64,000 bases of DNA from Kiritimatiellia bacterium (GTDB taxonomy: Bacteria; Verrucomicrobiota; Kiritimatiellia; RFP12; JBMNHG01): NCBI GenBank assembly GCA_050950285.1, contig JBMNHG010000002.1, forward strand, positions 248,296 to 312,295, in the 5' to 3' direction. Numbering within the stretch: the stretch's first letter is position 1; the number at the start of each line of letters is the position of its first letter. The position numbers and the translations under genes were made by a program. The notes below the pieces were generated by a model. The model was given only the letters and a program-made list of their open reading frames with translations. It was not told the origin of the DNA and made no database searches. Positions 23,908 through 52,778 of the stretch are shown here, piece by piece.

Positions 23908-26900
23908 GGTTCCGTCCTTTCCTTCCGTGCGTCGAGATCCACGAAGGTCGTCCCGTCCTTGCGCCCGAGGAAAAGCCCGTAGCTGCCTTGGAAGCGGACG
24001 CCTCCGCGCGCGGTGTCGTCCCAGTCCAGTTCCGAACGGGAGAAGAAGAGGCGGTCGTCGATGCCGTCGCCCTTCACGTGCACGCCCACGATGCGTCCGC
24101 CGGCGTCCCGGAGCGCTTCGGCGGAGAGCGGCGCCGCGCCGGCGACGAGGGGGCGGAGCACGGCGGCAATGCCCTTCGGCGAATCGCCCGCGAGGCGAAG
24201 GTGGCGCATGGTGAAGGTCGGCGCGCCGTGGAACTGCAGGATGGCGTCCTGGCGGATTTCCTCCTCGTCGAAGAGCTGGTCCGGCAGCAACACCTGCAGA
24301 TCGGTGCCGTAGCGGCCCTTGAACCGGTAGTCGCCGGGGCCGGCGACGGCGTGTTCGTCGGAGACGGCCTGGACGTTCCAGTGGGTCTTGACGCCGGCAG
24401 GCAGGCGGAGCTCGTCGTGCAGCACCACGTAGCCGGCGTCCTTCACCCAGCACACCGAACGGGAGTCGGCGGGATTCGGCTCGTTGAAGCGGTCGAAGGC
24501 CACTTGGACGAGGAAGTCGTCGCAGGCGTCGCTGAGGAAGACGGGGTCCTTCGCGGTAAGGGCCTTGGGATGGACGCCCTGGCAGAAGTCGGCTTCGGGC
24601 AGGCTGGCGAAGCGTTCGACGTGGCCGGGGGCCAGGGGGGACTGCGAATCATGGAAGGCGAGCGTGGTGTGGCGCCAGGTTTCGCCCGCCTCGCCGCCGT
24701 CGTAGACCAGCGGCTTGCCGTCCGCGAAGAGGAGGAGGCTGCCTTCGGTGTTGTGGTAGCGATAGCCGCCGGGGCCTTGCTTGAACAGGAGGTAGAACTC
24801 CTGCGGGGTGTCGAAGCGTCCGCGGAAAACGGCGCCGAAGCCTTCGAGGCGGCGGCTGGCGAGCGGCTGCGGCGGGGAGACGGGTTCGAGATCGCTCGCG
24901 TCGAGCGATGCGAACAGGAGCGGCAGGTTGCCGAACCCCAACCCGACGGAACCGCCCGTGCGGTAGGCCCAGAGGAGCTGGTCGGCGAGGACGGGGTCGC
25001 TCTCCCGCAGGACCTGGCCCATCAAGGCGAAATGCTCGGGGACGGCGGTGCCGAGTCCGGCGTGGTCGCCGATGGGCGGCAGGCGGCGCGAGGCGGGCTC
25101 GGCGCGGTAGGCGGCATCGTCGAGCGGGCGCGTCATGGCTTCGTCGGAGGTGGGGAAGGCGGGCGTAAGGAGCAAGATGCCCCACCGCATGAGGTCGGGG
25201 AGGCGCTCGATCGACGCAGGGTCCAGGCGGCCGTCGCGCCACAGGTGGTAGAGCAGGTTGATGCGGCATTTGAGGGCCTGGAGGTAGTAGCAGGCGGGGT
25301 TCTCGTACCACTTGCCGCTGCCGGGCGTGCAGTAGGCGTCGAGGGCCACGCGCGTCCGTTCCGTGGCGTGGTCGGCCATGGCGTCTGCGTCGGGTTCGCC
25401 GGCGAAGACGAGGCCCACGGTGCCCACGACGTCCACGCGATCCGCCTCGAAATTGGCGTTGCGCGCGCCGAACCCCCAGTTCATGAAGTCCTTCTCGCAG
25501 TACATGTGGCCCATCAGCAGGAGGAAGCGGCGGACGAGGCGCTCCTCCTGTGCGGTGAAGCACCCGCTGGCGGCGATCAGGTCGTAATCCTCGGCCCAGG
25601 CGGTGATGGGGCGCGCGCCGACGGGCGAGTACATGTCGGAATGGTCGCGTCCCAGAAGGGTCATGCGCGCTCGGATCCGCGCGACGCCCACCAGTTCGAG
25701 CTTCTTGCGCCATGCGACCAGCGGATCGCCGTCCACCGCGAAGCGAAGGCCCGTGGCGGGGCCGTGCACCTTCCCGGAGCAGATGCGCTTCCAGGATTCG
25801 GCGAAGGCCGGGTCGAAGCGCTTTGCGCGCAACGCGCGAAGTTCGGCCCTGCGGGCGACCACGCGGGGACGCTCCGCGGCATCCTGGACGTCGAGGTTCC
25901 AGCGGGCGAAATCATCGAGGCGCGGGGAGCCGAACTTGTGGTGCGAACGCGCAAGCTCCTTGTCGGGGCCGTCGTTCGCCGCGAAGGAAGAGGCCAGCAA
26001 CCCCCACTGGCGCTCGCCGTCGAAGAAGGCGAAGTGGAAGGCGGCATCGCCTGCGGCGGACGTGCGGACGGTAATCATCGACACGGTCGAACCGATCATC
26101 TCGGGGTATGGCCAGTCGAGCTCGCGATTGCCGTCGATCGGGCCATGCGAGAGGCGTTCGAACTTGCGGTCGATCCACTCGCCGCGGCGGAGGGTGAAGA
26201 CGGCGATGTAGTCCTTCTCGTCGAGGCCGTCGGGGGTCATCGCATAGCCGAAGTCGCAGGTGGCGCGCCACCACATGACGGATTCCTGGAGGCGCGCGAG
26301 TTCGCGGTCGGCCGCATCGAGCGTGCGCCAGTGGGGCGACCCGTTTTCCGCGCCCCAGTAGGCATAGCCGCGCCCGCCGGAGAATTCGGGGAGCGAGAAG
26401 TCGAAGGCGCCCTCCAGATCCGGCGGCGGTGTTTCGCGGGCGAGGAGCGCCTCTTCGCCCTGGAGGAAGGCGAGGTCGAGGCGGAAGGGCGAGCCGTCCG
26501 AGAAGGCGAACTCGATGCGGAGGCGCGCGGCGAGCGGCCCTTGCCCGAGGATGGTGGTGCGCCGCGAGGCCACCGACACGCCTTGCGGAAGGACGAAGCG
26601 GCCGCGGCCGCGCCACACGCCATCCGCCGCCCGCACGGAAACGATCGGCGCGATGCCGTCGTCGCCCCGCGCTTCGCCCCAGGCGATGCGGAAGGCGGCG
26701 CGACCGGTGTCGACCACGGCGGTGCGGCCGTCGGCGTCGGGCGTGATCGCCAGCGACGGGAAGCCCCCCTGCGCGGCGGACGACAGTTCGCAGACCGAGG
26801 CGATGTCCGTGCCCAGGGTGGCGCAGTGCCCGACGGTTTCGTAGAGTCCGATCAAACGGTCCGAGCGGGCGGGCAGTTCGGGAAGACAGAGCACCTGGCC

Positions 26901-28034
26901 GTCCGCGAGCGTCTGGAAGGGCGCAAATCGCGGCGCGCCGTTTTCCGGGCCTCCCGGGCTTCCGTTTGCGCGGCGTGCCGCGCGCGGATCCAGGAGGACG
27001 AGACGCGCGTCCTTCGACGGCGTCCGGGCGACCCGGAAGCGGTAGGGCTGGCGCGGGAAATCGTAGTCGAAGGGATTGCGCAGCCGCTCGACGTGTACCT
27101 TGCGGTAGGGGACGCCGTCGTCGAGGAGGAGATCGGGAAGACGGTCCGGGAAGGGCTCCGGGCGTGCGCTGCGCCACTCGTCGAGCATCGCGTCCACCAC
27201 GGTGGCGGTGTCGGCCGCGACCTCCACGCCGATCCGGAAGAAGCGGGTCGCGATGTCGAAGGCGTCCTCGTCGAGGCGCGCCGCGAGGAAGGCGTGGCGG
27301 CCGACGGGGACGGCGTCGAAGACGTAGCGGCCCTCGGCGTCGGCAACCGTCTCCAGCCCGCGAACCTCGCCGATGACCGGCTCGTAGTGCATCTCGGGTT
27401 CGTCGTAGGTGGCGGGATCCTTCTCCTTCATTTCCACGGCAAGACCCAGCACGACGGTGCATGCGGAGGCGGGGGAGCCATCGGGCAGGAGGAGCGTCCC
27501 GCGGACGACGCCGGTCGCGGGGGAAGCGTCCTCCGTTGCGCCCGGAGCCGGCTCGAAGCGTTTGCGGAGCGCCTTCGCCTCGTCCCAAAGGCTGGCGGCA
27601 TCGAGGGCGTCGGCGAGGCGTGCCACCTGTTCCGGGGCGGGATGCCCGGGAAGCGTCCGGACGGCCTTCCGGATGTCCCCGGAGATGCGGTCGCGCAAGC
27701 CTTGGGCGTAGGACTCGTATCCCATGCCGGCGGCGGCTTCGGACGAGCGCTGGTATACGTCGTAGGTGAAGAGCATGCGCATCACCGAGACGCGCGCGAG
27801 GAGGAAGTCCAGGGAGGATTCGTCCGCGATCTCCGAAAAACGCCGCAACGCGGCCTTCGCGGCCTCGACATCGCCCAGATAACGGAAGATGTCGCATTCG
27901 AGCACGAGCGATTCGGGGGTGTCGGGAAGACCGTCCGCACGGGCCCGGAGCAGCATGCGGCGGGCGGTCTCGTAGCGTCGGGCGGCGTAGGCGGCGCGGA
28001 TGGCCGCGAGGGGGGAGGAGGTCGAAGCGTTCAT
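23904..28034 (-). CDS. 1376-aa multi-domain protein: N-terminal TPR-like, CarboxypepD_reg-like beta-sandwich, heparinase II/III-like lyase domain
   Basis: The start (MNASTSSPLAAIRAAYAARRYETARRMLL) overlaps the esterase stop (ATGA). The middle has ..TGVVRGTLLLPDGSPASACTVVLGL...DAEGRYVFDAVPVGRHAF. The C-terminal half is heparinase II/III-like. This is the real product inside the 2374-aa ORF 23904..31028. Confidence 0.7.
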   Translation of the reverse strand: MNASTSSPLAAIRAAYAARRYETARRMLLRARADGLPDTPESLVLECDIFRYLGDVEAAKAALRRFSEIADESSLDFLLARVSVMRMLFTYDVYQRSSEAAAGMGYESYAQGLRDRISGDIRKAVRTLPGHPAPEQVARLADALDAASLWDEAKALRKRFEPAPGATEDASPATGVVRGTLLLPDGSPASACTVVLGLAVEMKEKDPATYDEPEMHYEPVIGEVRGLETVADAEGRYVFDAVPVGRHAFLAARLDEDAFDIATRFFRIGVEVAADTATVVDAMLDEWRSARPEPFPDRLPDLLLDDGVPYRKVHVERLRNPFDYDFPRQPYRFRVARTPSKDARLVLLDPRAARRANGSPGGPENGAPRFAPFQTLADGQVLCLPELPARSDRLIGLYETVGHCATLGTDIASVCELSSAAQGGFPSLAITPDADGRTAVVDTGRAAFRIAWGEARGDDGIAPIVSVRAADGVWRGRGRFVLPQGVSVASRRTTILGQGPLAARLRIEFAFSDGSPFRLDLAFLQGEEALLARETPPPDLEGAFDFSLPEFSGGRGYAYWGAENGSPHWRTLDAADRELARLQESVMWWRATCDFGYAMTPDGLDEKDYIAVFTLRRGEWIDRKFERLSHGPIDGNRELDWPYPEMIGSTVSMITVRTSAAGDAAFHFAFFDGERQWGLLASSFAANDGPDKELARSHHKFGSPRLDDFARWNLDVQDAAERPRVVARRAELRALRAKRFDPAFAESWKRICSGKVHGPATGLRFAVDGDPLVAWRKKLELVGVARIRARMTLLGRDHSDMYSPVGARPITAWAEDYDLIAASGCFTAQEERLVRRFLLLMGHMYCEKDFMNWGFGARNANFEADRVDVVGTVGLVFAGEPDADAMADHATERTRVALDAYCTPGSGKWYENPACYYLQALKCRINLLYHLWRDGRLDPASIERLPDLMRWGILLLTPAFPTSDEAMTRPLDDAAYRAEPASRRLPPIGDHAGLGTAVPEHFALMGQVLRESDPVLADQLLWAYRTGGSVGLGFGNLPLLFASLDASDLEPVSPPQPLASRRLEGFGAVFRGRFDTPQEFYLLFKQGPGGYRYHNTEGSLLLFADGKPLVYDGGEAGETWRHTTLAFHDSQSPLAPGHVERFASLPEADFCQGVHPKALTAKDPVFLSDACDDFLVQVAFDRFNEPNPADSRSVCWVKDAGYVVLHDELRLPAGVKTHWNVQAVSDEHAVAGPGDYRFKGRYGTDLQVLLPDQLFDEEEIRQDAILQFHGAPTFTMRHLRLAGDSPKGIAAVLRPLVAGAAPLSAEALRDAGGRIVGVHVKGDGIDDRLFFSRSELDWDDTARGGVRFQGSYGLFLGRKDGTTFVDLDARKERTEP

Positions 28035-30196: not shown

Positions 30197-31744
30197 CTAG
30201 TGGCCACGACGCGTCCCGCCGCCGCGTCCGCCGCCATGCGGGGCGGGGAGGCGGCACTTCCCGCTGTTGTCCTCGAGCCAGAGGCTGCCTTGCTTGCGGA
30301 AGGCGGGGTTCTCCCATCGGCGGAGGATGTTGCAGTAGCGGCACCCGTCCTGGAGGGTGCCATGGGCGGTGTAGGGGGGGAGATGTTCGGCGAGATGACG
30401 GCGCCACGGGAGGTCGAACGCGCCGGTATCCGAGCCGGAGGCGGTGTCCACGGGGATGAGCCGCACGGCACGGAAGGCGGGGAAGAGCAGGCCGAAGGCG
30501 TTGGCGGGGAGGCGTCCCCCCTCCACGGAATCGGAGGCGAGATAGCCGAAGGGCTTGGCGGCGGCGGTCCAGAGCACGTCGTCGCGCTCCATCCCCGAGG
30601 AGGTCCCGATGCGGTCGGCGCTCGCGTAGACGCGCACCACGGCGTCCGCGCCGGCGACGTTGTATTCCCTCTTCACGGGGCCGACCACGGGGAAGGCGTC
30701 GGGCCCGTCCGCCTGGATGGCCTCCCAGTCGTGCCAGAGGGAATCCTCGTAGACGTACCACGTCTCGACACGCTCGAAGGCGTTGGAGAAGGCGTCGGCG
30801 GCGATGTCCCCGTCCAGCGACGCGGCGCCTTCGCGGAAGGAGGCCTCCCCGACGAGCATGCGGAGTCCGGTGGTGACGGGCGCGACGCCGAGGCCGAAGA
30901 TTTCGCAATTGAAGAACGAAGGCGGATCGGGCTCGGGAAGCGGCTCCCACCACGTGTAGTCGGTATAGACGTCGAGGAGCGTGCGCGGCGGATTGTCGGA
31001 GATTTTCTGGTGGAGGAAGAACCAGCACCAGTTTCTTCCGGCGACGGCTTCGTAGAAGTCGCGGGTCCGGAGGATGTGGCCGCCGGTGGCGTCGTTGTAG
31101 AAGCGGGCGTTGTCGGGTCCGGCGGCGATGCCGTGCTCGGCGGCGGAACGGAGCATGGCGGCATAGGCCTCCCAGGCGCCGGGGAAGGGAGGGTCCAAGG
31201 CCTGCGCGCCGCCCACGGTGTCGCCATAGGACAGCACGCCGGAGGCATGGTCGCGGAGGACGTCGGAGAAGCCGGGGTCGGCGTAGAGGCGGTTGTTCTT
31301 GGCGGCGACTTGCGCGGCCATCAGGGCCACCATGGGGCCGGTGAGGCAGAGGCGCGCCTGGATGTTGGTGATGGCGTCCACCGCGGCATCGGCCGCGGCG
31401 GCCTCCGGGGTGCCGGGTTCGCCGGCGCCGGCGAGGACGAGGGCGTGCATCACGTTCAACTCGCCGATGAGGTTCAGCGTATCGCCCTGCCAGCGGGCGG
31501 CGGCGAGGGCCGCCGCGTCCCCGCCGTTCTGGGCAAGGGACTTCGAGGCGACGAGGCGATGGAGGTCCACGTTCCAGAGGAAGACGAACGCGAGGATGGT
31601 GAGCGCGAGGACCAGGAAGACGATGGCCTGGCCGCGCTTCCGGGGGGACGCGGGGGCGCGACGCGCGTCCGCCCCGCGCCGGGAAGAAAGGGCGTCCGAT
31701 CGCGGCATGCCGCGAAACGCCGGATGTCGCCGCTCACCAGCCAT
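30197..31744 (-). CDS. TadG-like Flp-pilus-associated pseudopilin
   Basis: A basic region (..PRKRGQAIVFLVLALTILAFVFLWNVDLHRLV) and a single TM are followed by the TadE/G-like N-domain signature (..LAQNGGDAAALAAARWQ..). The soluble C-terminal domain is large. Confidence 0.6.
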   Translation of the reverse strand: MAGERRHPAFRGMPRSDALSSRRGADARRAPASPRKRGQAIVFLVLALTILAFVFLWNVDLHRLVASKSLAQNGGDAAALAAARWQGDTLNLIGELNVMHALVLAGAGEPGTPEAAAADAAVDAITNIQARLCLTGPMVALMAAQVAAKNNRLYADPGFSDVLRDHASGVLSYGDTVGGAQALDPPFPGAWEAYAAMLRSAAEHGIAAGPDNARFYNDATGGHILRTRDFYEAVAGRNWCWFFLHQKISDNPPRTLLDVYTDYTWWEPLPEPDPPSFFNCEIFGLGVAPVTTGLRMLVGEASFREGAASLDGDIAADAFSNAFERVETWYVYEDSLWHDWEAIQADGPDAFPVVGPVKREYNVAGADAVVRVYASADRIGTSSGMERDDVLWTAAAKPFGYLASDSVEGGRLPANAFGLLFPAFRAVRLIPVDTASGSDTGAFDLPWRRHLAEHLPPYTAHGTLQDGCRYCNILRRWENPAFRKQGSLWLEDNSGKCRLPAPHGGGRGGGTRRGH

Positions 31745-32441
31745 GGTCTTCCAAATAGAGGGGATAGTGGCTCTCGATCTCCTGCCGGCCCCGGAGACGC
31801 AGCCGGCCTTCGTCCAGGGGGGAGCGCCCGGCCGTTCCGAAGAGGTCCAGGAGGGCCTTCACGTGGAGGTGGAGCGGGTAGGATTGCTCGACCGCCACCT
31901 CGTCCATCCTCGAGAGAACGAGGGGGGCGAAGCCGCCTCCGCCGAGGCCGGAGCCGCGGATGTCGTCCCAGTTTTCGTAGTCGAGGATCTGGTCGGCGGT
32001 GGGCTCGTTCGGAGAGTCGAGGTAGTCGCCCAGGCGGGCGAGTTCGAAGTCGCCACGTTCGCTGTGGGGATGGCTTTGCAGGGCGAGGTCCCAGACCGCG
32101 CCGGGGTTCCCGGAGGCGACGGCATTCCGGAAGGCCGCGCCGGCGAAGCTTTCGCCCGCGGGGACGGTCATGGCGCCGGCATTGGGGATGGCGGCCACGC
32201 GCATCGACTTGCGCACCATCCATCCATTGAAGCCGACGGCGCGCGCACGGGCGGCGCGCGCCGCGGCATGCCGCAGGATTTCGCGGCTCGCCGAGGCATG
32301 CGCGAGCTGGAAGAGGCCGAAGAAGAGCAGGCAGATGAGAAGGATGGCGAGAAGCGACTCGATCATCGCCTGCCCGCAGCGGCGGGAATCCGGCCTAGTT
32401 GAGCGTGCCGTCTTCCTGGAGGCTGCGGAGGCCTTCGCCAT
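31734..32441 (-). CDS. TadE-like pseudopilin with Flp-type prepilin motif
   Basis: ..SRRCGQAMIESLLAILLICLLFFGLFQ: a G/QxM[IV]E prepilin-peptidase motif then a hydrophobic helix. Overlaps the 3' end of the flp gene by 47 nt, so the start is uncertain. Confidence 0.55.
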   Translation of the reverse strand: MAKASAASRKTARSTRPDSRRCGQAMIESLLAILLICLLFFGLFQLAHASASREILRHAAARAARARAVGFNGWMVRKSMRVAAIPNAGAMTVPAGESFAGAAFRNAVASGNPGAVWDLALQSHPHSERGDFELARLGDYLDSPNEPTADQILDYENWDDIRGSGLGGGGFAPLVLSRMDEVAVEQSYPLHLHVKALLDLFGTAGRSPLDEGRLRLRGRQEIESHYPLYLEDHGW

Positions 32442-32640
32442 CGCTCACGTCCTCGTATGCGCCCTGGGCCTCGGAACCGACATCGGCATCCAGCGCGGAG
32501 GTGGCGCCGGCGGTCTTCTTGAAGATCGCCTTGCCGAATTTGCCGAAGAGCACGATGCCGGTAATGGCGATGAGCACCACGATGATGATGTATTCGACCA
32601 TCGTCTGGCCGCTGCGGCGGTTGCGGGGTTTCTTGGACAT
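32395..32640 (-). CDS. flp: Flp-family type IVb pilin
   Basis: 81 aa with ..RNRRSGQTMVEYIIIVVLIAITGIVLFGKFG: the canonical Flp G/xxMVEY processing motif and hydrophobic core, plus an acidic tail. Confidence 0.7.
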   Translation of the reverse strand: MSKKPRNRRSGQTMVEYIIIVVLIAITGIVLFGKFGKAIFKKTAGATSALDADVGSEAQGAYEDVSDGEGLRSLQEDGTLN

Positions 32641-32679
32641 GGATGGGTCTCCTTGGGAAGTGCCGGGTGGCGCCGGAGT

Positions 32680-32925
32680 CTAGGGATAGTCCGAAGAAAC
32701 CAGCGTAAGCGTGCGGTCTGCCTGCAAGCGCAACGCGTACAGGAAGAGCGCCATCACCGCCACGACGGCCAGCAGGGACGCCGCGACGATCAGGTACTCG
32801 ATCATGGCCTGCCCGGAACGCCCGCGTTTCCTGCGGGGCGACCACGGCCAGGCCGCCACATGCCGAATCACTTTCAGCAACATGCCATCACTGTACCCCA
32901 AGCGGGGCGGAAATGCAATTGCCAA
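32680..32925 (-). CDS. flp: Flp-family pilin, second copy
   Basis: ..RKRGRSGQAMIEYLIVAASLLAVVAVMALFLYA. The true start may be the internal Met (MLLKV, ~32883). Confidence 0.65.
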   Translation of the reverse strand: MAIAFPPRLGYSDGMLLKVIRHVAAWPWSPRRKRGRSGQAMIEYLIVAASLLAVVAVMALFLYALRLQADRTLTLVSSDYP

Positions 32926-32975: not shown

Positions 32976-34964
32976 TCAGGATGCATGGAAGGTGCGGGCG
33001 CGGATCTTGGCGCGGACTTCATCGTCGAGGCGATGGTAGTATTCGGCGTAGCCGCCCACGCGCACGATGAGGTTCCGGTGGCCGTCGAGGTTCTTCTCCG
33101 CCTCTTCCAGCATGTCGCGCGACAGGCAGGTGATTTGCACCTGCATGCCCCCAAGCGAGAAGAACCCTTCGATGAGCGCCCGCAACGCGGGTTTCCCGAA
33201 GCCCGGCTGGAGGGTGAGGTTCAGCACGGGAATCCCGAGGGCGGCGGGGAGGTCCATCGCCGCCACGCTCTTCAGCAGCGCCGTCGGCCCGAGAGTGTCT
33301 TTCCCGTAGATCGCGCAAAGGGAATCGGCGAGCGCCTCCCCCGCCGCACGACCGTCCGGCGTGGCGCCCACGTAGCGGCCGCCCTGGCCGTAGGAGACGA
33401 AGAGGATCGACGCAGGCAGGAATCCAAGGCCGAAATGGGGTTTGCGGTTCCGAAGAAAGCCGAATATCTCGCGGGTGAAATCCCCGGCCAGCGCGTCGGC
33501 TTGCGGATGATTGATGCCGTGGCGCACGGGACAGGCCTTCATGCGGCGCAGGAAATCGGGATCGGAGGCCGCGAGTTTCGCGAGGAAGTCCTCTTTGGTG
33601 TAGTCTTGCCTCCGGTAGACGTGCTCCCGAAGCGCCAGCAGCGAGTCGACGGCGTTCACGATGCCGGCGAAACTGACGAGGCTCCAGGCGTAGCGGGCGC
33701 CGCCGTCGTTGAAGTCGCGTTCGTTGGCGATGCAGTCGTCCACGAGCAGCGTACGCATCGGGAGCGGGTTCCAGCGGGCGCGCTCGGCCTGCGAATTCGC
33801 GATTTCGCGCGTTACCGTGTCCACGGCGCCGGCGATGTCCGCCAGGTACGCGCGGTAGAAGTCGTCGAAGGTGGCGCATTCGGCCAGGCGGGCCTGGAGG
33901 GCCTTTTCGAAGAGGAAGGGCAGGTTGATGCCGGCATCGAGCGAGCCCACGTTCGAAAGCCCGGCGAGCATCGTCTCGGTGCAGCCGCCGCCGCAGAACC
34001 GCGACACGTCTTCGCGGCGGATTTCGGGGAAGCGGGCGAGGAGGCCGTCCACGATTCGCCGGCGGTTGTAGAACGAGGGCTGGGCCCCGCCGGCGAGGAT
34101 GCAGTCGAGCGCCTCGTCCCAGATTTCGTCGGAGGTGTCGTCGCCCACGAGCAGCTCGATCATCGGACGGCGAAGGCCCCGGACGGCGCGCAGGCAGGGA
34201 AGGACGAGCGGGTTGGGGGTCATCCCCACGGCCATCGAATAGGCGTCCGTGGCATCGACGATCTTGAACCATTCGCGGAGAACCGGCGTGGGGTCGCCGT
34301 CGCGTTCCGCGTCGTAGTAAGGGGCCAGGCCGTCGGCGAGGCATCCTTCGTTGTCGCAGCCGTCGAGGAAGAAGACGAAGTTCCAGCAAACCATGGCCTC
34401 GTAGAAATCGCGTGCCGGGGCGAAGGGGACGCGTTCGAGGGCCGCGACAAGGCGGGGAGCGGCGTTTTCGGAGCGGAGCTTGGCCAGAAGGCGCCCATGC
34501 CAGGCGCGGATGCCGGCCAGCAGGTCGAGAAGGCCGTCCCGCAGGCCGTCGTCTTCCATGGCCTTGACGCGCGCTTCGTAGCCGTCGAGCCCTTCGGCGA
34601 GCACCCGCTCGTAGTTCGGCGTGGAGTGGGTGTACATGTTGCCCGCGACGGAATGCTGCCATGGCACGGTGGACTGGTAGCGGAAGAAATCCGATTTCGC
34701 GAAGGTGTCCTTGAGCGCCGGATCGGCGGCTTCGAGACGTTCCCAGTCGACCGCGATCTGCAGGTACGTCGAACGCACCGCCACGTCGCAGGGAAGCGGC
34801 GAGCAGGGATAGAAGAGGCCGCCGCCATACGGGGGAAGCGGCGTCTGCTCGTAGTATCGGCGGAGGGCCCGGGCCTTGCGCGTGAAGAGGGGGCGCGTTT
34901 CGTCCTCGTAGAGTCCCGCGGCGTAGTATTCGCCGATACGGCGGAATCGTTCGGAAAGAGTCAT
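32976..34964 (-). CDS. Glycyl radical enzyme (PFL-like superfamily, GCxE-type active site)
   Basis: C-terminal glycine-radical motif RVGGYAEYYHRLDDE. Active-site loop ..RFCGGGCTETMLAG (Cys plus Glu as in eliminase-type GREs). 663 aa from the MTLSERF start, which is short for the family. Confidence 0.8.
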   Translation of the reverse strand: MTLSERFRRIGEYYAAGLYEDETRPLFTRKARALRRYYEQTPLPPYGGGLFYPCSPLPCDVAVRSTYLQIAVDWERLEAADPALKDTFAKSDFFRYQSTVPWQHSVAGNMYTHSTPNYERVLAEGLDGYEARVKAMEDDGLRDGLLDLLAGIRAWHGRLLAKLRSENAAPRLVAALERVPFAPARDFYEAMVCWNFVFFLDGCDNEGCLADGLAPYYDAERDGDPTPVLREWFKIVDATDAYSMAVGMTPNPLVLPCLRAVRGLRRPMIELLVGDDTSDEIWDEALDCILAGGAQPSFYNRRRIVDGLLARFPEIRREDVSRFCGGGCTETMLAGLSNVGSLDAGINLPFLFEKALQARLAECATFDDFYRAYLADIAGAVDTVTREIANSQAERARWNPLPMRTLLVDDCIANERDFNDGGARYAWSLVSFAGIVNAVDSLLALREHVYRRQDYTKEDFLAKLAASDPDFLRRMKACPVRHGINHPQADALAGDFTREIFGFLRNRKPHFGLGFLPASILFVSYGQGGRYVGATPDGRAAGEALADSLCAIYGKDTLGPTALLKSVAAMDLPAALGIPVLNLTLQPGFGKPALRALIEGFFSLGGMQVQITCLSRDMLEEAEKNLDGHRNLIVRVGGYAEYYHRLDDEVRAKIRARTFHAS

Positions 34965-35058: not shown

Positions 35059-37698
35059 TCAGTATCGTGGCCTGCCACGGGGAGGTTGACGTGAAGAAGG
35101 CACATCCCAATTGCGGCACTTCCTGCCGTCGGCATCGAAAAAACGGATGCGATGCAGGTTCGTGTCCAGAAACTTCAGCCGGAGGGAAAACCGCCGGCCT
35201 GCGCCGCATTCGCCGCCAATCGCTGGCAATGGGATCCGGACTTTATAGGTTGGCTTCCTGCAAAACTGGTAATCGTTCAGATCCATTCGCGCTGCCAATG
35301 AGGTCATGTCCGACTCTGCAATGCGGGTCCCGTTCAAGTCAAGTACCTCGACACGCGGGAACATGCCTGAAAGTCGAGCTTGCGAAAGCGCATTGTTGAC
35401 GCTGAAGAGCAGTGAACGTGAATCCTCGTCATGTGCAATGTTCCAAACCACCAGTCCGTTCTTGAAATGGAGCGACGGCGTGGCGACCGGATGGAACGAG
35501 GACAAGGAGAAATCCGTTCCGGAAACGGAGCGGAAGCGCAGCCTGTTGGGGATGTGATGGAAGTTGCAGTTGGCAGGGATGGGGCACCGAATGCCATGCC
35601 GCGCGTCCTCGAAGGAAAAAAGGCCAAGCGGGAATCCATCCAAGTCAACCTCGACAAAATCATCCGCAGGTTCATCCCCCGGCGGGCAATCGATCGAGAA
35701 ATCAATGACATTGTACCGACGGAGGATGTCGGGCCTGATGAACCGGAAGATTTCGTTCCGGGACACTTGCGGCGTGATGATCTGGTTGACGATGTAGCGA
35801 TCGTCTTCGACAATCGTCGAAAGATTGTCTTGGGAGAATCTCGTGCCATTCCATGGGGAGTCTGGCGATAGAAACGCCTTGTCGACGACAACCAGTGGGG
35901 TTGGCCAGACCATTTGCAGCAAATCGATGCCTTCGAGCCGGGATTTCTCATCGTCCGCATTGACTTTCGCACATATTTTTCGCGAAAGGTCCGGGAACGT
36001 ACCCTCCCAGGCGAAAACAAAGAAGTTTTTGTTTCGGGCAAGCTGCAGCATTTCACGCGAGGTGATTTCTCGATCGTGCATCGGGAAAACCGCGAGAACA
36101 GGCGGTTCGGGAAGGTTGTCGATATATTGGACCGAGGGCAGTCTGTCGATCGGCTCGAACCGGTGCAGGCCCGCACGGGCGGGGGTATGGGTGTCCGGCA
36201 GGCAGACTGATTCCACCCACACCGAGGCGAAAGCCAAGACAGGAATCGCCAGGGAGGCGAATCCCCGCAACTGCCTGTTGCGGACGCGACGGACAGAATC
36301 GAGCCATGAATCGAGTCCTCGTGCCGCCGCTACGACCATGAACAGCAGGACAAAGAACGAGAATCTCGATACAACGCGGAAGCCCCATAGCGCATGGCAT
36401 TGCCGATAGAGAGTCCAGTATATCCGGTTTTGAGCGACCGTGCCGATCGATCCGACGCAGAAACTGGGGCCAAACGAAAAAACCATGGCAAATAGGGATG
36501 CGCATCCCAGCCCCTTGAAAAAACAATCGTTCATGTCGCATCCGCGAACATCGAAGACAAAGACAAAGGCGACCGCCGCCGCGCACGCAATGTAGACGGA
36601 ACATACGAATGCGTTGATGCCAAAGGGCGTTTCCCCCGCGACATTTGCAGATACGCCTTGAACCAGAAACGCACACAAGGCCACGAGCAGGGTCCACAGG
36701 ATTACGTTCTGGGCCACGAATCGCTTGCCCGATCCGCGAACGGATGCGACGTGTGAACGAATCAACTCCCACGATGCCAGCAGGAAGACCGCGAGGGTGG
36801 GATATGCGCATGCTTCGTTTTGGATCGTCTTGTCGAATGGCGGCCATTTTACCCGATAGGGCGGCACGATATAGCTGGCTGGTTCCAGCACATGCCGTTT
36901 GACTTCCCCGATTTTCCGGACGAGCATGTTGCTGTCAAGGACCCTCGCATAGGGCCAGAGGAAATACCCTGCCAGAAGGATTCCCAGTACGCCTGCAACC
37001 GCGAGCGGGAGCCAGAACTTCCCGAACGATGGAAGTAATTCCTTCCAGGATTTGCGGAACAAGGGAATAACGATGAATGGCAGGAGGAACAACAGGAATA
37101 CCGCATGGTACAGCTCGGACATTGCCTGCAGCCACAGCGACAGGCAGCACGACACCGCATGGCCAATGCTTGGCCGCTTGAAGTAGCGAACCAGAAACAG
37201 CAGGAAGAGCATCACGCCAAAATTCAACTGCATGTTGAATTCGACGATATAGCGCAACTTGTACGGCAGGATCGTAAAGATTGCCGCCAACGTGAAACTC
37301 GCAATGCGCCCGACTCCCAACTCCTTCAGCAGAAGCCACATGCATGTTCCAGACAAGGCCCAGAACACGAGGAAGCAAATATTGTACGAGAGAATTGGGC
37401 CCGCATGGAAGACTCCCGCCAGGAAGGCGGCAAGGAAGGCGGGCGGATAATGCAACCCTTCGAAATAGAATCCCGAAGGATAGGGATAGAACATGTTAGT
37501 ATTGCCGTCAACCGGCAGAAGACGCCCGTGAAGGAGTTCCCGGGCCGTAAAATCCAGGCGCCAGGCATGCAATGGAGGATCCCAGTGGGCAAAGAGGCTG
37601 TCCCTGAAAGTCATGCACCACGGCCACGTCGCAAGGACAATGATGGCCGTCAATTCCAGAGTGACCAGAAGAAAAGGCAATAGGCGTTTCTTCTCCAT
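35059..37698 (-). CDS. 879-aa polytopic membrane protein (possible GT-C-like glycosyltransferase) with large C-terminal soluble domain; low-GC gene
   Basis: More than 12 hydrophobic helices in the first ~500 aa, then a ~370-aa hydrophilic domain. The base composition is clearly AT-richer than the flanks. Confidence 0.5.
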   Translation of the reverse strand: MEKKRLLPFLLVTLELTAIIVLATWPWCMTFRDSLFAHWDPPLHAWRLDFTARELLHGRLLPVDGNTNMFYPYPSGFYFEGLHYPPAFLAAFLAGVFHAGPILSYNICFLVFWALSGTCMWLLLKELGVGRIASFTLAAIFTILPYKLRYIVEFNMQLNFGVMLFLLFLVRYFKRPSIGHAVSCCLSLWLQAMSELYHAVFLLFLLPFIVIPLFRKSWKELLPSFGKFWLPLAVAGVLGILLAGYFLWPYARVLDSNMLVRKIGEVKRHVLEPASYIVPPYRVKWPPFDKTIQNEACAYPTLAVFLLASWELIRSHVASVRGSGKRFVAQNVILWTLLVALCAFLVQGVSANVAGETPFGINAFVCSVYIACAAAVAFVFVFDVRGCDMNDCFFKGLGCASLFAMVFSFGPSFCVGSIGTVAQNRIYWTLYRQCHALWGFRVVSRFSFFVLLFMVVAAARGLDSWLDSVRRVRNRQLRGFASLAIPVLAFASVWVESVCLPDTHTPARAGLHRFEPIDRLPSVQYIDNLPEPPVLAVFPMHDREITSREMLQLARNKNFFVFAWEGTFPDLSRKICAKVNADDEKSRLEGIDLLQMVWPTPLVVVDKAFLSPDSPWNGTRFSQDNLSTIVEDDRYIVNQIITPQVSRNEIFRFIRPDILRRYNVIDFSIDCPPGDEPADDFVEVDLDGFPLGLFSFEDARHGIRCPIPANCNFHHIPNRLRFRSVSGTDFSLSSFHPVATPSLHFKNGLVVWNIAHDEDSRSLLFSVNNALSQARLSGMFPRVEVLDLNGTRIAESDMTSLAARMDLNDYQFCRKPTYKVRIPLPAIGGECGAGRRFSLRLKFLDTNLHRIRFFDADGRKCRNWDVPSSRQPPRGRPRY

Positions 37699-37992: not shown

Positions 37993-39249
37993 CTACGCTG
38001 GGACTGCTGCCTGGGCGCAGCAGTGGTGGAGCTCCCCGTTGACGTACCATATGTACGCCTTCAGGAATGACTCGAGCCCGACTGCGGACCAGAACTGGCC
38101 GCACCGCTTGAAGCGGTTCTGCAACTGCGAACAAAGCGATTCGACCGCGCCGCTTCCGATGGGGCGCCCCAGCCTGCGCTGCCTGAGGTAGTCCATGTGG
38201 TCCTTGTGCTTCATGAAATATTCCGTCTCGCGTTGCACGGCCTTCGCGTCCCAGCATCCATCGCCTTCGTGCGCCTTGAGGATATCGAGTAGCGTCTTCC
38301 CCCCGTACCGCTTGAGCTTCCTGCAACGCTCCGAAAGCCATGCCTTTCGCGCGGGCTCGTCGTCCGGGAAGAGCGCCGCGGCGAGCGCGCCGAGATGCTC
38401 GGTGGCGTGGTAGTAGTCCAGCGTCCCTTCGGCGATGGTGGCGAACCTGTCCTCGAAGATGTTCCAGAGGTAGGTGCCGCCGTCCATGACGATGTAGACG
38501 AACTTCGCCTGCATCATCCCCATCCGCCGCGCCTCGAATTCGACCTTCCGGCCGAAGTCGACCGGATCCGTGCCGGCCGGCATGCAGACTGCGTGCTTGG
38601 TGACAAGCACGCGCCTTCCCCCGCTTGTCTCCGCGGCGTGGGCGAGCTTGAAGATTGTCGCCGACTTCATCTCGCGCCATTCCACGCGCTCGGCGGCTCT
38701 TGGGTTGCGCTTCCCCCATCCCGCCCCGCGGTGCCGGGCGAACCAGCCGTCCATCATGATCACCAGCGTGTCCTCGCTCCCCGCCGCCTCCTCGCAGAGC
38801 CGGGGAAGCTTCCCTTCCTCGCAGCGCCCGGCGATGTCCCTGACGACGTCCATGACCTTGTCGTCGCTGACGGGGCACCCCCATTCCCTGCAGAGCTTCG
38901 AGGCTTTCTCGAACGATCCCGTCTCCATGGCCGTCGCCGCGATCCTCATCTCGAACGCGGGGGAGACGCAGCCGCGCCTGCCGCCGAAAAAGCGCAGGCG
39001 CATCGGCGTCTCGTACCGACCGGACGACCGGCAGAGCCCGTTCTTCACTTTCAGTTCAACCGGCCCGAACCCGGTCGCGACCCTCATGCCGATCGTCCTG
39101 GTCTTGACGAGCGGCTTCCCGTCGCTTCCCTCGGAGGGGGTGCTCTCCGCGAGCCTCTGCAGGTAGTCTTCGTACTCCCTGCGGGCCAGTTCCATGTGTT
39201 TGCGCTGGATTGCCTTTTCGGCTTCGATCAGGTTTTTGCAGGTTTCCAT
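37993..39249 (-). CDS. Transposase, ISKra4-family-like
   Basis: 418 aa with a characteristic ..LDYYHATEHLGA.. region and an RNaseH-like DDE core. Lies inside the IR-bounded element. Confidence 0.7.
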   Translation of the reverse strand: METCKNLIEAEKAIQRKHMELARREYEDYLQRLAESTPSEGSDGKPLVKTRTIGMRVATGFGPVELKVKNGLCRSSGRYETPMRLRFFGGRRGCVSPAFEMRIAATAMETGSFEKASKLCREWGCPVSDDKVMDVVRDIAGRCEEGKLPRLCEEAAGSEDTLVIMMDGWFARHRGAGWGKRNPRAAERVEWREMKSATIFKLAHAAETSGGRRVLVTKHAVCMPAGTDPVDFGRKVEFEARRMGMMQAKFVYIVMDGGTYLWNIFEDRFATIAEGTLDYYHATEHLGALAAALFPDDEPARKAWLSERCRKLKRYGGKTLLDILKAHEGDGCWDAKAVQRETEYFMKHKDHMDYLRQRRLGRPIGSGAVESLCSQLQNRFKRCGQFWSAVGLESFLKAYIWYVNGELHHCCAQAAVPA

Positions 39250-39800: not shown

Positions 39801-41693
39801 ATGGCGGGTTGTTTCCGAAAGTTGCATACGCTCCGCTCCGCGCGGCTCGCCGCGGTGTCGGCCGGCGCCGGGCTCTCCCCCGGCGGCACGAACACCCTCC
39901 GCCTGCTCCGCGGTTGCTTTTCCGTCAGCCCGCCGCCGCTCGACGGGGCGGACGCCGCGCGGCTTGCCGAGGCGGTCCGGGCCAAGCCCGCCTGTTCCGC
40001 CGCCCTGTGCGGCCTGCTGTCCGGGCGCCGCGAAGGCTGGCTGGCCGAGGACGTCCGGGCGCGGCATCTGCTGGACTCCGGGAAGGCCTCCGAGGCCGCC
40101 GCCGCGTGGGAGGCCATGCTCCGCCGCCGCCGCGGCCCGCCCGACCGCATCGCCTTCGCGCGCTGCGAGGCGCTGGCCGCCTGGAAGCCGGGGAAGGGCA
40201 TCGAGGCGCTGGAGGAGTGGCTGGAGCGCTACAAGGACTCGCCGCTGCGCGAGCGCGCCGCCGCCTGCCACGCCCTGCTGCCGGCCCGCCATGGCGACCC
40301 GGCCGAGGCGGCATCCCGCCTCGGGGCCTTCCTCGGGGAATACCCCGGCAGCCGCTTCGCGCCCGAGGCCCGGCAGGCGCTGGCCAGGGCGCGCGGCGCA
40401 TCGGACCGGCTGGAACAGCTCCGGGCGGCGCAGGCCGCCAAGGAGGAGAGGCGCCGGCGCGACCCGGCGTCGGCCGACCTCGAACGCGCCGAGTCGCTCC
40501 TCTCCCAGGGACGCCACGCCGACGCCGAAAAGGCCTTCCTGTCCTTCCGCGACCGCCGCCGCCATCCGCTGTGGGGGCGCGCCTGGCATGGCCTCGGCAA
40601 AGCCCGCCACGCCCGGGGCGACACGCAGGGCGCTCTCGCCGCCTGGGACGACCTCTGGCGGCGCTCGCTGGCCGACACCAACGTCCTGTGCGCCGCCCGG
40701 GCCCGCCGCGCGGCGGGCGACGCCTGGCTCGAGGATCTCGGCGAGCCGGCCCGCGCCCTGAAGGCCTACGACGAAGCCGCGTCCCGCACCGACTTTTCCG
40801 ACCCCGCCTTCGACCTCAACCGCGGGCTCGCCCTGCTGATGCTCGGGCGCGCCCCGGAGGCCGCGGCCCTCTTCACCCGCCGCCGCGACGCGTCCGCCGG
40901 CGACAAGGCCGAGTTCCTGCGCTGGGACCGCCTCGCGAAGGAGTGCGCCGCCGGACGCCTGGCGCCGCCCCCGCGCGGCCTGCTCCCCGACCAGCGCCGC
41001 GCCCGTACCGACCTGGCGATGGCCGACGCCCTCCTCGCGGCCGGCGAGCCGGCCCGCGCCCTGAGGCTCTACCGCCGCGCGTCCGCCCCCCTGGCGGGCC
41101 ACGAGGGGGCCGACCGGTGCGACCTGGGCATGGCGCTCGCCCTGGCCGCCCTCGGCCGGCCGAAGGAGGCGCTCGCCCTCTACGGGCGTTTCACGGGCGA
41201 ACACGGGCGCAGCCCGCTGGCCGCCGGAGCCCTGCTCCGCGCCGGCACGCTCTGCGCATTGCCCCGCGTGAACGACTTCAAAGGCGCCTGCCAGTGGTTC
41301 GCCCGGGTCGTCGAAAACCACCCCGGCACGCGCGAGGCCGAGGCGGCGGAGTTCTATGCCGCCAAAAGGCTCCACGACCCCTTCGACGACGACCAGCGAA
41401 ACGACCGTCCCCGATTCCCGCATGGCAAGCCCGTCCATCCCGACATCACGCTCTCCCGACATCACGCTCCATTGGGAGGCGGGGAACCCGCTCGCCCTGC
41501 TCGGGGGAACCACGGTTTACACGAACAAAATCGAGATCGACGCCGGGGAGGTCGACTGGCCCCTGGATTACGCCGTCATCCCGCGTCATTCGGCCATTTC
41601 CTTCGCCATCGCCGCCGAGGGCCAGGCCGCCGAGGGCGGCAAGGCGGTGGACATCGTCCACGGGCGCGTCGTCGACGTGGACCTCGACGTTGA
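39801..41693 (+). CDS. TPR-repeat protein; probably the N-terminal part of a single TPR-trunk-toxin gene interrupted by a 16-bp duplication
   Basis: TPR-like helical repeats throughout. The last real residues (..KPVHPDITL) match the N-terminus of module 2 (KPVNPHITLHW), and the tail after nt 41455 is out-of-frame read-through. Removing one 16-bp repeat unit fuses this frame to 41422..43458. Confidence 0.6.
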   Translation: MAGCFRKLHTLRSARLAAVSAGAGLSPGGTNTLRLLRGCFSVSPPPLDGADAARLAEAVRAKPACSAALCGLLSGRREGWLAEDVRARHLLDSGKASEAAAAWEAMLRRRRGPPDRIAFARCEALAAWKPGKGIEALEEWLERYKDSPLRERAAACHALLPARHGDPAEAASRLGAFLGEYPGSRFAPEARQALARARGASDRLEQLRAAQAAKEERRRRDPASADLERAESLLSQGRHADAEKAFLSFRDRRRHPLWGRAWHGLGKARHARGDTQGALAAWDDLWRRSLADTNVLCAARARRAAGDAWLEDLGEPARALKAYDEAASRTDFSDPAFDLNRGLALLMLGRAPEAAALFTRRRDASAGDKAEFLRWDRLAKECAAGRLAPPPRGLLPDQRRARTDLAMADALLAAGEPARALRLYRRASAPLAGHEGADRCDLGMALALAALGRPKEALALYGRFTGEHGRSPLAAGALLRAGTLCALPRVNDFKGACQWFARVVENHPGTREAEAAEFYAAKRLHDPFDDDQRNDRPRFPHGKPVHPDITLSRHHAPLGGGEPARPARGNHGLHEQNRDRRRGGRLAPGLRRHPASFGHFLRHRRRGPGRRGRQGGGHRPRARRRRGPRR

Positions 41694-43458
41694 CGCCAAC
41701 CACGACGGCAAAATTGATGACGCCGACGAGCCCTTGGAGGTGGACCCCGGCGGCTATGTGTGCGTCGGAACCAACAACCTGACGCCGGTCACGCTCAAGT
41801 TGGAGCCCGTCGGCCTGCCCGGCAAACTGACCCTCTCGGCGACGATGGGTGGGGACCGAATCCGCATCTGGAAAGACGCCGGGCGCGCGACCGAGGTGAT
41901 ATTGACCAATGGCTGCGCCCAGGTGGCTCCCGGCACGCTCTACGTCGAGGGGGTCACCAACAGCGCCGCCCTCCGCGACGTGGAACTCCGCCTCGAATAC
42001 GACGAGAACCCGGAGGGCCAGAATAACCGCCTCTTCAAGTGCGAGGACAGGGTGAAGCTGACGGCCGTGAAGGTGGACTTGGATATCGACTCGGACAACA
42101 ACGGAGCCATCGAAGAAGCAGACGAGGCCCAAGAACTTACCGAACCGGGCAAGTTGATCTATCTGAACCATGATGACGACAACAAGAACGACATAGAGGA
42201 CAAGGCCGAGAACACTGCAATTGTCACTGATGAAGATGACCTCCAACCAATCAAGCTTGCATTTTCACCAAACATCGCTGGCGGAAAGATAATCCTTGCT
42301 GCTCCAAGTGGTGGGTCTCGGATTCAAGTTTGGGGAAACTCCACAAAAGGTGTTGCGAGTGAGAAAGTTGACCTGCCGAAGACGTGGACAATAGGCACTG
42401 ACGCTGTCCCTGCAACACTCTATGTCGAGGGCATCGACCCCGGTGCTGCTCAATTGAAATTGGCTTACGAGGTTAACTCGGTCGAAGTTTGCAAGGACGA
42501 GATCAAGTTGGGCATCGTCAAAATTGAGTTCAAGGAACGGGGCGATACAAAATACGGTTATGATAACGGGACCGTTGACAACAACCCTGTTCCCAAATCG
42601 GTTGACACTCCCCCACAGAAGTATGACTGGGTAAACGTTGACAGAGACAACAAGACGACAGATGTGGACGTAGAGATTACTCCGGCGTCGTATGCCAAGT
42701 ACGTTAATTTTATTAGCAGCGATGACGCAAAAACCACATGCAATCCTGTCGCAGCAACTGCAAATCCGCAGAAATTGACCATAACCGGCACAGCCTCGGG
42801 GACATCCCATGTCCAGACGCGACTTGGAACCACAACAGGTGCTAAAGGCACTCGGTTGAATGTGGCCTGTTACAAGCTGGCAGCCCTTAATGTCAATTTC
42901 TATAAGGTAAGTGCCACGGGGCTTGCGCCTGATGGTACCACGGCGGAACAATTCGAAAGTGGCGCGAATGCGTTCCTCAAGCGGGGTGTCAGTGAACTAT
43001 CACTGACCGACAACGGCACCACAATAACTAACTACGATGACAACGCAAATTCTAAACTAGATATCGATGCAACGGCGGGGGATGGCGGAAGTGAATGGGT
43101 CAAGGTGACAGCGGCACTAGGGGCTCCTGTTGGGATGAAACTGCTTCATGTAAAGGCCTTGCGCGTTAACATCGGGGGAACATGGGTCAACGCAACAGGC
43201 TTACGCTATGGTGATTGGACGCTGGTTTCTGACGAGTCAACGAGCAAAGTCAGAACTGTCGCCCATGAGATGCTTCACAAGCTAGGACTGAAAGATACAG
43301 GCCCCAGTGGGAGCAACACTGCAAACATCATGTACTATATGAGCAATGGCACAAAGTACTTTGTGGGGTATTTCAAAGTGGAAGGCGTTCAGACTGGGTC
43401 TGGCACGTCTTACACCCCAAAACAACACGAGCTACAGTGGGAAATGATTTATCGGTGA
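41422..43458 (+). CDS. Polymorphic-toxin-like module 1: conserved trunk + C-terminal HExxH (zincin-like) region
   Basis: Trunk ..GKAVDIVHGRVVDVDLDVDANHDGKIDDADEPLEVDPGG...LTLSATMGGDRIRIWKDAGR..EVILTNGCAQVAPGTLYVEGVTNSAALRDVELRLEYDENP. Reiterated ~100-aa modules. C-terminal ..VAHEMLHKLGL.. (43264-43278). Confidence 0.65.
   Translation: MASPSIPTSRSPDITLHWEAGNPLALLGGTTVYTNKIEIDAGEVDWPLDYAVIPRHSAISFAIAAEGQAAEGGKAVDIVHGRVVDVDLDVDANHDGKIDDADEPLEVDPGGYVCVGTNNLTPVTLKLEPVGLPGKLTLSATMGGDRIRIWKDAGRATEVILTNGCAQVAPGTLYVEGVTNSAALRDVELRLEYDENPEGQNNRLFKCEDRVKLTAVKVDLDIDSDNNGAIEEADEAQELTEPGKLIYLNHDDDNKNDIEDKAENTAIVTDEDDLQPIKLAFSPNIAGGKIILAAPSGGSRIQVWGNSTKGVASEKVDLPKTWTIGTDAVPATLYVEGIDPGAAQLKLAYEVNSVEVCKDEIKLGIVKIEFKERGDTKYGYDNGTVDNNPVPKSVDTPPQKYDWVNVDRDNKTTDVDVEITPASYAKYVNFISSDDAKTTCNPVAATANPQKLTITGTASGTSHVQTRLGTTTGAKGTRLNVACYKLAALNVNFYKVSATGLAPDGTTAEQFESGANAFLKRGVSELSLTDNGTTITNYDDNANSKLDIDATAGDGGSEWVKVTAALGAPVGMKLLHVKALRVNIGGTWVNATGLRYGDWTLVSDESTSKVRTVAHEMLHKLGLKDTGPSGSNTANIMYYMSNGTKYFVGYFKVEGVQTGSGTSYTPKQHELQWEMIYR
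41439..41470 (+). repeat. 16-bp tandem duplication (cccgacatcacgctcY x2) at the TPR/trunk junction
   Basis: Units at 41439-41454 and 41455-41470, with 15/16 identity. Deleting one unit gives an uninterrupted ORF 39801..43458. Confidence 0.7.
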
Positions 43459-43475
43459 GGAAAGGTGCTTTACAG

Positions 43476-44417: not shown

Positions 44418-44531
44418 TGGCACAGGCATAGGTTCGCGGCAAGAGCGAAGCACCCGGAACCCTCTCTACTGGGTGTCCCCTCCGCTCTAGTTGTCTTTGG
44501 CTCATGCAATGATTTCATTGTCGTCTTTCAA

Positions 44532-46253: not shown

Positions 46254-46274
46254 TTCTTTTCGGAGGAGAACATT

Positions 46275-46952: not shown

Positions 46953-47186
46953 CTGCTTTACGGCCTACGCACCTGACACGCCGCGTGCTGGAAGAAAGGC
47001 CACGCGGCGCGCCAGGTGCTCCGGCCTTGCTCCGGCGCTATCGCGCTTCCGGGGCACCTCCGCGCTGACGCGCTCCGGTGGTGGACTCGCTCACACGTTG
47101 CCCTTTCCGGCGCACCCCCGTGTTGCCTCCAGGCCGACACCTTGCATACATTGACAAATGGAATGACGGATTGATACGCTGTCCGC

Positions 47187-48941: not shown

Positions 48942-48958
48942 AAGGTAGGAAACAAATC

Positions 48959-52562: not shown

Positions 52563-52778
52563 GGAATCCCTTTCATGCGGGAAAACCGCAGAAAAAATAT
52601 CGAACAAAAAGATTACGCGCACGCCACCCGCAAAGCAAATCAAATCAAAAGAGGCTCTTGCAAAACCGCGACCCGGCCGGACGACACAGAGGTCGTCCCT
52701 CCATCCGGCCCGCCGGGGACGGCGGTCCCCAGGCAGGGCGTCCCTCCCGATCCGAGGAGCGGCGTGTCCGGACGGCCC

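Follow-up and report, generated by a model that had tools for sequence, protein, structure and literature searches.

Glycerol dehydratase (GD; 1R8W) and 1,2-propanediol dehydratase (PD; 5I2G, 9RCO) are glycyl radical enzymes (GREs) that act as B12-independent C-O eliminases. E. coli PflD and YbiW are 1,5-anhydrohexitol-6-phosphate isomerases, and HypD is trans-4-hydroxy-L-proline dehydratase. The anaerobic reactions of GREs tie gut microbes to host chemistry, as in TMA, H2S and p-cresol formation and in hydroxyproline use. According to the 2026 review PMC13450708, all eliminases and isomerases keep a CXE motif whose Glu is hydrogen-bonded to the substrate hydroxyl, and a CC pair on the Cys loop is found only in pyruvate formate-lyase (PFL) and TdcE. 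The review gives Cys503/Glu505 of HPAD, a decarboxylase with Glu637 as its second catalytic Glu, as a further CXE, and the reaction class therefore cannot be read from this motif by itself. It also describes the helices before the barrel as the canonical GRE dimer interface and stresses that whole GRE clades are still unassigned, and in the sections consulted it mentions no GRE class shorter than PFL.

We analyzed a 64-kb stretch of DNA from a Kiritimatiellia bacterium, hereafter called the window, which contains a single GRE gene. The gene and the signature sites of its product are located as follows.

32976..34964, minus strand: compact GRE gene, 662 aa plus stop codon
34626..34628, minus strand: codon of H113 in predicted barrel strand beta1, invariant in the family, in the column of YbiW H165 and PFL Arg176
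34341..34364, minus strand: shortened loop D201-G-C-D-N-E-G-C208, in place of ESNGHSVSFGR of canonical PFL2-type enzymes
33975..33986, minus strand: Cys loop G327-C328-T329-E330, invariant in 82 family members
33981-33983, minus strand: codon of C328, the predicted thiyl radical residue, aligned to YbiW C441, GD C433 and PflB C419
33975-33977, minus strand: codon of E330, the CXE glutamate, aligned to YbiW E443 (hhalign) and GD E435 (hmmsearch)
33048..33062, minus strand: Gly loop R635-V-G-G638-Y, coordinates checked by translation
33051-33053, minus strand: codon of G638, predicted to carry the glycyl radical; like R635, G638 is invariant across 82 family members

The start Met at 34964 agrees with the JGI gene call and with the N-termini of homologues, and the longest open reading frame extends to 35135. 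A 703-aa plus-strand ORF lying over the gene was rejected as a high-GC shadow ORF. The GC3 of the minus-strand gene (0.85) is that of the real genes of the window. An identical protein (100%) is present in NCBI as MGI6494730.1 from a Kiritimatiellia MAG, under the name "pyruvate formate lyase family protein". Pfam matched Gly_radical (1.3e-12) and, over the C-terminal half of the model alone, the PFL-like domain (2e-33). The RVxG[FWY] motif of the C-terminal glycyl radical domain occurs as RVGGY at residues 635-639, at the start of RVGGYAEYYHRL (residues 635-646); the corresponding residues are RVAGY in YbiW/PflD and RVSGY in PflB. GCTE (residues 327-330; GGCTE, 326-330) lies within RFCGGGCTETM. 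With both domains and both loops present, the protein is a genuine GRE, as an earlier note on this DNA had proposed. The short size given there (about 663 aa) was also correct, the 662 aa being about 120-150 aa fewer than in every characterized PFL-like GRE.

The same note had assigned the protein to the eliminase/dehydratase type on the basis of GCxE. The CC dyad of PFL, which would have spoken against this assignment, is not seen in the alignment: PflB has ACCVSPM where the window protein has GGCTETM with a single Cys. C328-T-E330 thus fits the CXE of eliminases and isomerases and is invariant in the family. The narrower assignment to eliminases is less secure, because CXE is also found in isomerases and in HPAD. 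None of the NCBIfam equivalog models recognized the protein: scores were 134 bits for HypD (NF043068, cut-off 1100), 134 for the PflD type (NF007437, 1109), 125 for IAD (NF033718, 1100), 91 for CutC (1050), 85-104 for HpsG/HpfG (1000), 77 for HPAD (NF033715, 1150) and 34.7 for PFL (TIGR01255, 994). The generic PFL2-3 subfamily model TIGR01774 gave 142 bits (cut-off 678). When PDB sequences were scored by profile, HypD (213 bits), PflD (209), GD (202) and PD (194) ranked highest, followed by the decarboxylases (about 131), BSS (103) and PFL (88). By profile score, the window protein is therefore closest to eliminases and isomerases.

Several differences set it apart from these relatives. Identity to GD and PD is about 21-23%, and the window protein is 125-180 aa shorter, lacks the equivalent of their NGHS loop, and has Thr for Val in CXE and Gly for Ala before the radical Gly. 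Compared with PflD and YbiW it is 103-148 aa shorter and lacks their ESN[GA][HS]S loop, and whereas the E. coli enzymes are linked to PTS or aldolase genes, the window GRE is not. HypD, the top-scoring enzyme, resembles it in CXE and in its gut-anaerobe habitat, but can be aligned only from residue ~263 on. In place of the canonical NGHS-type loop of eliminases and isomerases the protein has DGCDNEGC, with an 8-residue deletion; D201, D204 and G207 of this loop are invariant among the 82 family members, and N205 is nearly so. Because the NGHS loop has been deleted and remade and all equivalog models failed, the substrate probably lies outside those already known. Class III ribonucleotide reductase (NrdD) and a YjjI-type short GRE-like protein were also considered as identities and were rejected, as the family-specific domains or folds were not found.

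An AlphaFold2 model built with 82 homologues (pLDDT 94.2, pTM 0.93) predicts ten barrel strands with a Cys hairpin and a Gly hairpin, in agreement with the beta/alpha barrel of GREs, at the center of which these two hairpins come together. The model superposes on PflD over 639 of the 662 residues, and Foldseek gave TM scores of 0.84-0.87 to GD, PD, PflD and CutC. By hhalign, the protein aligns with YbiW/PflD at a probability of 100 over residues 106-661, with C328/E330 paired to YbiW C441/E443. Of the 148 extra residues of YbiW, about 49 fall before residue 106, in the pre-barrel region, about 64 between beta1 and the Cys loop, and about 35 from there to the Gly loop. The N-terminal 245 residues could not be aligned to solved GREs by phmmer or hmmsearch; residues 106-245 were bridged only by hhalign and by MAFFT with many homologues, and residues 1-105 are unaligned by sequence. 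Within the bridged region, hhalign pairs H113 with YbiW H165 (...MY---THS vs ...GDAHLA). The register is supported by a 94-sequence MAFFT alignment, because the same column holds His nearly everywhere and Arg in PflB (R176; GRGRIIGDY), which is the pyruvate-binding Arg of PFL in the review (PMC13450708). All 61 family-invariant residues are retained in the window protein. Residues with named roles in GD include His164, His281 and Ser282; His164 is presumably at the same position as H113.

A search of 5.8 billion proteins returned 1174 matches at E<=1e-5. The best 120 of these were almost all 652-678 aa long (one has 645 aa), with 47-100% identity over the full length. When 1.84 billion cluster representatives were searched exhaustively with HMMER, the matches that spanned the entire query were 661-770 aa long, and canonical-length GREs (782-823 aa) aligned only from query residue ~250 on, the first at E ~1e-41. 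For a neighbor-joining (NJ) tree, 94 full-length representatives were aligned with MAFFT, and E. coli PflB served as the outgroup. The window protein and the representatives P0121-P0127 formed a subfamily of 661-672 aa with 100% bootstrap support. This subfamily is part of a broader compact clade (98% bootstrap) whose 46 representatives are 661-766 aa long (median 713); E. coli YbiW and PflD are placed outside it. GC[TS]E is present in all 46 representatives and xGG[YF] in 42; the members checked retain the Gly of the Gly loop, and the 8-residue deletion in the NGHS loop relative to YbiW/PflD/PflB is common to the clade (hhalign, MAFFT). The other compact GREs (673-766 aa, GGC[TS]E; e.g., P0131 of 717 aa) align with the window protein over their full length at 30-42% identity and share its Cys- and Gly-loop signatures and the loop deletion, but are 10-100 aa longer and form separate subfamilies of uncharacterized metagenomic clusters. 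Because the 661-672 aa subfamily sits inside this larger clade, the tree indicates that the small size is a conserved clade trait and not a truncation or a peculiarity of the window gene.

At 50% identity the compact clade falls into at least 46 clusters, most of which come from uncultured gut anaerobes. In one-genome-per-species data, to which the window genome itself does not belong, the family was found at 79 loci, 76 of which carry Clostridia/Bacillota-type labels, including Oscillospiraceae, Acutalibacteraceae and Christensenellales. These loci are from uncultured MAGs, many of which come from human, ruminant, rabbit, horse or other animal guts, judging by their isolate names. One of the 79 is from Kiritimatiellia (L009, 78% identity). 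The subfamily is thus nearly confined to uncultured gut Clostridia, in which the uncharacterized clade as a whole is widespread. We found no literature joining the terms glycyl radical and Kiritimatiellia and no GRE literature on the motifs RVGGY, RIGGY, GGCTE or GGYSEYF, and term searches of the AARE paper PMC11528403 gave nothing relevant to compact size or AraC linkage. A metagenome scan for further close relatives gave one irrelevant 58-residue match.

The earlier note had also stated that no activating enzyme is adjacent to the gene. Indeed, tblastn (E<=1) with four GRE activases as queries (two associated with the family, and YbiY and PflC of E. coli) detected none in the 64 kb. Besides the window, the search covered the flanking DNA of L001, L009 and L088; no activase turned up in that of the two closest relatives (L009 and L088) either. 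Pfam Radical_SAM matched only 1 of the 39 window ORFs, a gene previously described as ThiH/HydG-like, which can now be specified as HydG because it passes TIGR03955 and the ThiH model stayed below its cut-off.

51060-52643, minus strand: HydG ([FeFe]-hydrogenase maturase), TIGR03955 407 bits vs cut-off 312

At the family level, a GRE-activating enzyme starts 10-20 nt past the GRE stop codon in 33 of the 79 loci, or 33 of the 73 that could be assessed. It is located elsewhere in the flank in 4 loci and is not found within the flank in 36 of the 73; the remaining 6 were not assessable. The absence seen here is real, but it is shared with about half of the assessable loci. It is therefore normal for the family and probably incidental. 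The family-associated activases have two forms: one of 243-246 aa, PflA-like and without a ferredoxin insert, and one of 288-302 aa with two CX2CX2CX3C motifs. The activase of L006 passes both TIGR02494 and TIGR02493. A divergent AraC-family regulator (AraC_binding plus HTH) is encoded within 400 nt upstream of the GRE in 48 of the 79 loci, and 24 loci have both the regulator and the activase. No AraC homologue was found in the window or near the GRE of L009 or L088.

Beyond AraC and the activase, no conserved partner or transporter emerged from a context census in which 822 neighbor ORFs were clustered, per-locus maps were drawn and Pfam was run on the 118 nearest neighbors that are neither AraC nor activase; the most frequent Pfam family, AP_endonuc_2, occurred in 4 of these 118. 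Gene context across the 79 loci thus gave no pathway or substrate. In a minority of the loci, L088 among them, the GRE has an SDR, Zn-ADH, Gfo/Idh/MocA or xylose-isomerase-like gene next to it, which is weakly consistent with a carbonyl product.

In the window, the GRE gene lies between an 879-aa membrane protein upstream and, downstream, two Flp-like pilins, TadE, a TadG-like protein, a SASA-domain esterase, a 1376-aa ORF and an MBL-fold protein. The 879-aa protein was dropped as a functional partner: it matches nothing in Pfam, NCBIfam or PADLOC, and neither L009 nor L088 has a homologue of it next to the GRE. In L009, SecDF is upstream of the GRE; in L088 (72% identity), a divergent SDR and a second, canonical-like PFL2 GRE are beside it. 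The three loci share no synteny, and neither L009 nor L088 has flp, tad or SASA genes. In another NJ tree (NJ was the only tree method used), the three genes form a high-GC clade nested among Clostridial sequences. Their pairwise dN/dS values of 0.08-0.21, which are qualitative only since dS is near saturation, indicate that the high-GC copies are under purifying selection. No promoter-like site was found in a scan around the GRE gene, and terminator-like sites there were no more numerous than in shuffled sequence. The gene borders on a low-GC island that varies between strains and contains transposases. The nesting, the purifying selection and the lack of shared synteny suggest, as the simplest reading, that the gene was probably acquired laterally from gut Clostridia long ago and then kept, and that its present neighbors (the 879-aa protein and flp/tad) are probably unrelated to its function.

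We therefore consider it reasonably likely, from the sequence comparisons and the structural model, that the gene encodes a functional member of an uncharacterized compact GRE clade. By analogy with GD, CutC, HypD and YbiW, as they are described in PMC13450708, we infer eliminase- or isomerase-type radical chemistry on a hydroxylated substrate, with activation in trans. On the family-level evidence, an activase encoded elsewhere in the genome would place the radical on G638; the activation of E. coli TdcE by PFL-AE is a precedent for this. Homology suggests that the radical would then be relayed from G638 to C328. The C328 thiyl radical may abstract a hydrogen from the carbon that bears the hydroxyl or is adjacent to it, E330 would deprotonate the hydroxyl, and the resulting ketyl radical would expel a vicinal leaving group by C-O, C-N or C-S cleavage, with H113 possibly serving as the acid that protonates it. 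Return of the hydrogen from C328-H would give a carbonyl product. The predicted outcome is a 1,2-elimination or a ring-opening isomerization.

It is also conceivable, but unlikely, that the enzyme belongs to another reaction class, such as an arylacetate-type decarboxylase or one with undescribed chemistry in which the CXE Glu has a different role. HPAD likewise has a CXE, no equivalog model was satisfied (at most 142 bits against cut-offs of 678-1150), the NGHS loop of the canonical relatives is deleted, and no neighbor points to a substrate. However, in both profile and fold comparisons the protein consistently scores higher with eliminases and isomerases than with decarboxylases, BSS or PFL, and, like YbiW and PflD, the family keeps the beta1 His. 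Moreover, no small-subunit gene is conserved beside the GRE; with no adjoining conserved small ORF and with equivalog scores far below the cut-offs, membership in the known HPAD/IAD/AAD decarboxylases is not supported. The database name of the protein and the Pfam name PFL-like would suggest a pyruvate or 2-ketobutyrate formate-lyase, but GGCTE in place of the ACCVS of PflB, His in the R176 column and the very low TIGR01255 score reject PFL and TdcE, leaving this identity a negligible chance.

The gene might instead be a leftover of lateral transfer that has lost the AraC and activase genes and cannot be activated in this genome. Neither homologue is present in the 64 kb, the gene adjoins the transposase-bearing island, and a housekeeping PFL activase may not serve RVGGYAE because the Gly-loop sequence is thought to govern activase specificity. 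We regard such a silent gene as improbable, considering that all family-invariant residues are kept, that the low dN/dS extends over three lineages which all lack an adjacent activase, that GC3 has been ameliorated to the host level, and that half of the Clostridial loci have no adjacent activase either. The earlier note had further suggested a link to the downstream genes, in which the GRE, flp/tad, SASA-esterase and 1376-aa genes would form one pathway for a released deoxy- or amino-sugar. All of them lie on one strand and are closely spaced, the gene next to the GRE being 92 nt away; the esterase is 3 kb downstream, and no terminator was detected in between. This link was not borne out, because the high-GC copies nest in Clostridia, share no neighbors and are under purifying selection. 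The orthologues at 78% and 72% identity have wholly different neighbors, the family partners are AraC and the activase, flp/tad genes are not conserved partners in any of the 79 loci, and Flp, TadE and TadG are pilus proteins rather than glycan enzymes. A common sugar pathway is thus very unlikely. The preferred reading remains a functional compact GRE that is activated in trans.

A further-reaching proposal would be that the compact GGC[TS]E / xGG[YF] clade is a functionally new GRE class, with a substrate and perhaps a reaction outside the known ones, and that the Kiritimatiellia copy was laterally acquired and is trans-activated. We offer this only as a speculative idea with a modest chance of being correct. 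If it were true, the pre-barrel helices would have been trimmed by about a third, and the enzyme might assemble differently because these helices form the canonical dimer interface. Some cognate activases would also lack the ferredoxin-like domain, a form otherwise reported only for PFL and RNR activases. For this genome, the flp neighborhood carries no functional signal, and both the small size and the lack of an activase are what the family normally shows. The main value of the locus is as a pointer to a tractable uncharacterized clade rather than in any peculiarity of its own. The clade is easily recognized by its length (661-766 aa), GC[TS]E, xGG[YF] and the deleted loop, and its usual AraC-GRE-activase cassette is self-contained, which makes it tractable for heterologous expression and for regulator-based ligand screening. 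Tandem paralogues occur at some loci: L042 has four GREs, and L061 and L063 each have two GRE-activase pairs.

Two forms of activating enzyme (activase) partner this compact, non-PFL glycyl radical enzyme (GRE) family. One form, of 288-302 aa, has the usual ferredoxin-like insert and two CX2CX2CX3C motifs, and the other, of 243-246 aa, lacks the insert. They were found at the following loci, which carry compact GREs in other genomes:

L020:11985-12857 (and others), activase with the ferredoxin-like insert
L006:11983-12714, insert-free activase
L016:11975-12715, insert-free activase
L027:7363-8097, insert-free activase

A 2026 review on GREs (PMC13450708) mentions the insert-free state only for the activases of PFL and class III RNR.

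Tandem arrays of compact GRE paralogues were seen at three loci (L042, L061 and L063). Four adjacent copies of 663-668 aa occupy L042:1592-9711, and L061 and L063 each contain two GRE-activase pairs. L024 and L063 also carry compact paralogues that are more distantly related and measure 703-717 aa. At the locus L088, the GRE that is 72% identical to that of the window lies back to back with an SDR gene and a second GRE gene:

L088:2-1876 (-), second GRE, cut by the contig end
L088:1888-2718 (-), SDR

The second GRE looks canonical, as judged from its scores with TIGR01774 (207 bits) and the HpsG-like model (188 bits).

The GRE gene in the window adjoins a set of seven ORFs (879, 700, 326, 573, 225, 584 and 265 aa) with a GC content of 0.51-0.58, compared with about 0.68 elsewhere. 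These ORFs are interrupted or flanked by other genes:

35059-37698 (-), part of the low-GC ORF set
37993-39249, UPF0236-like transposase
39801-41693, TPR protein, GC 0.74
41356-49735 (+), part of the low-GC ORF set
49921-50997, IS1634-family fragment

None of the seven has a credible Pfam or PADLOC match, and an NCBIfam search with the 879-aa ORF also returned no match. Because the transposase and TPR insertion is missing in L002, which is from another sample, these ORFans constitute a strain-variable island.

Flp/Tad-like genes and two very large ORFs are also present in the window:

32395-32883 (-), a pair of short ORFs for Flp-like pilins (67 aa and 81 aa)
31734-32366 (-), TadE-like gene, after the pilin ORFs
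30197-31744 (-), TadG-like gene, 515 aa, after the pilin ORFs
23904-28034 (-), 1376-aa ORF
52779-59081 (-), 2100-aa ORF

The Pfam matches of the Flp/Tad-like genes are weak (Flp_Fap, 2.6e-4; Tad, 5.9e-4), both below the gathering cut-offs, and no tad secretion ATPase or secretin gene was noted among the window ORFs scanned. Searches of Pfam, NCBIfam and PADLOC with the 1376-aa ORF gave no match.

The only radical SAM gene of the window encodes HydG, the [FeFe]-hydrogenase H-cluster maturase:

51060-52643 (-), HydG (TIGR03955 score 407 bits, cut-off 312)

Its presence suggests that the host is an anaerobe making an [FeFe]-hydrogenase.
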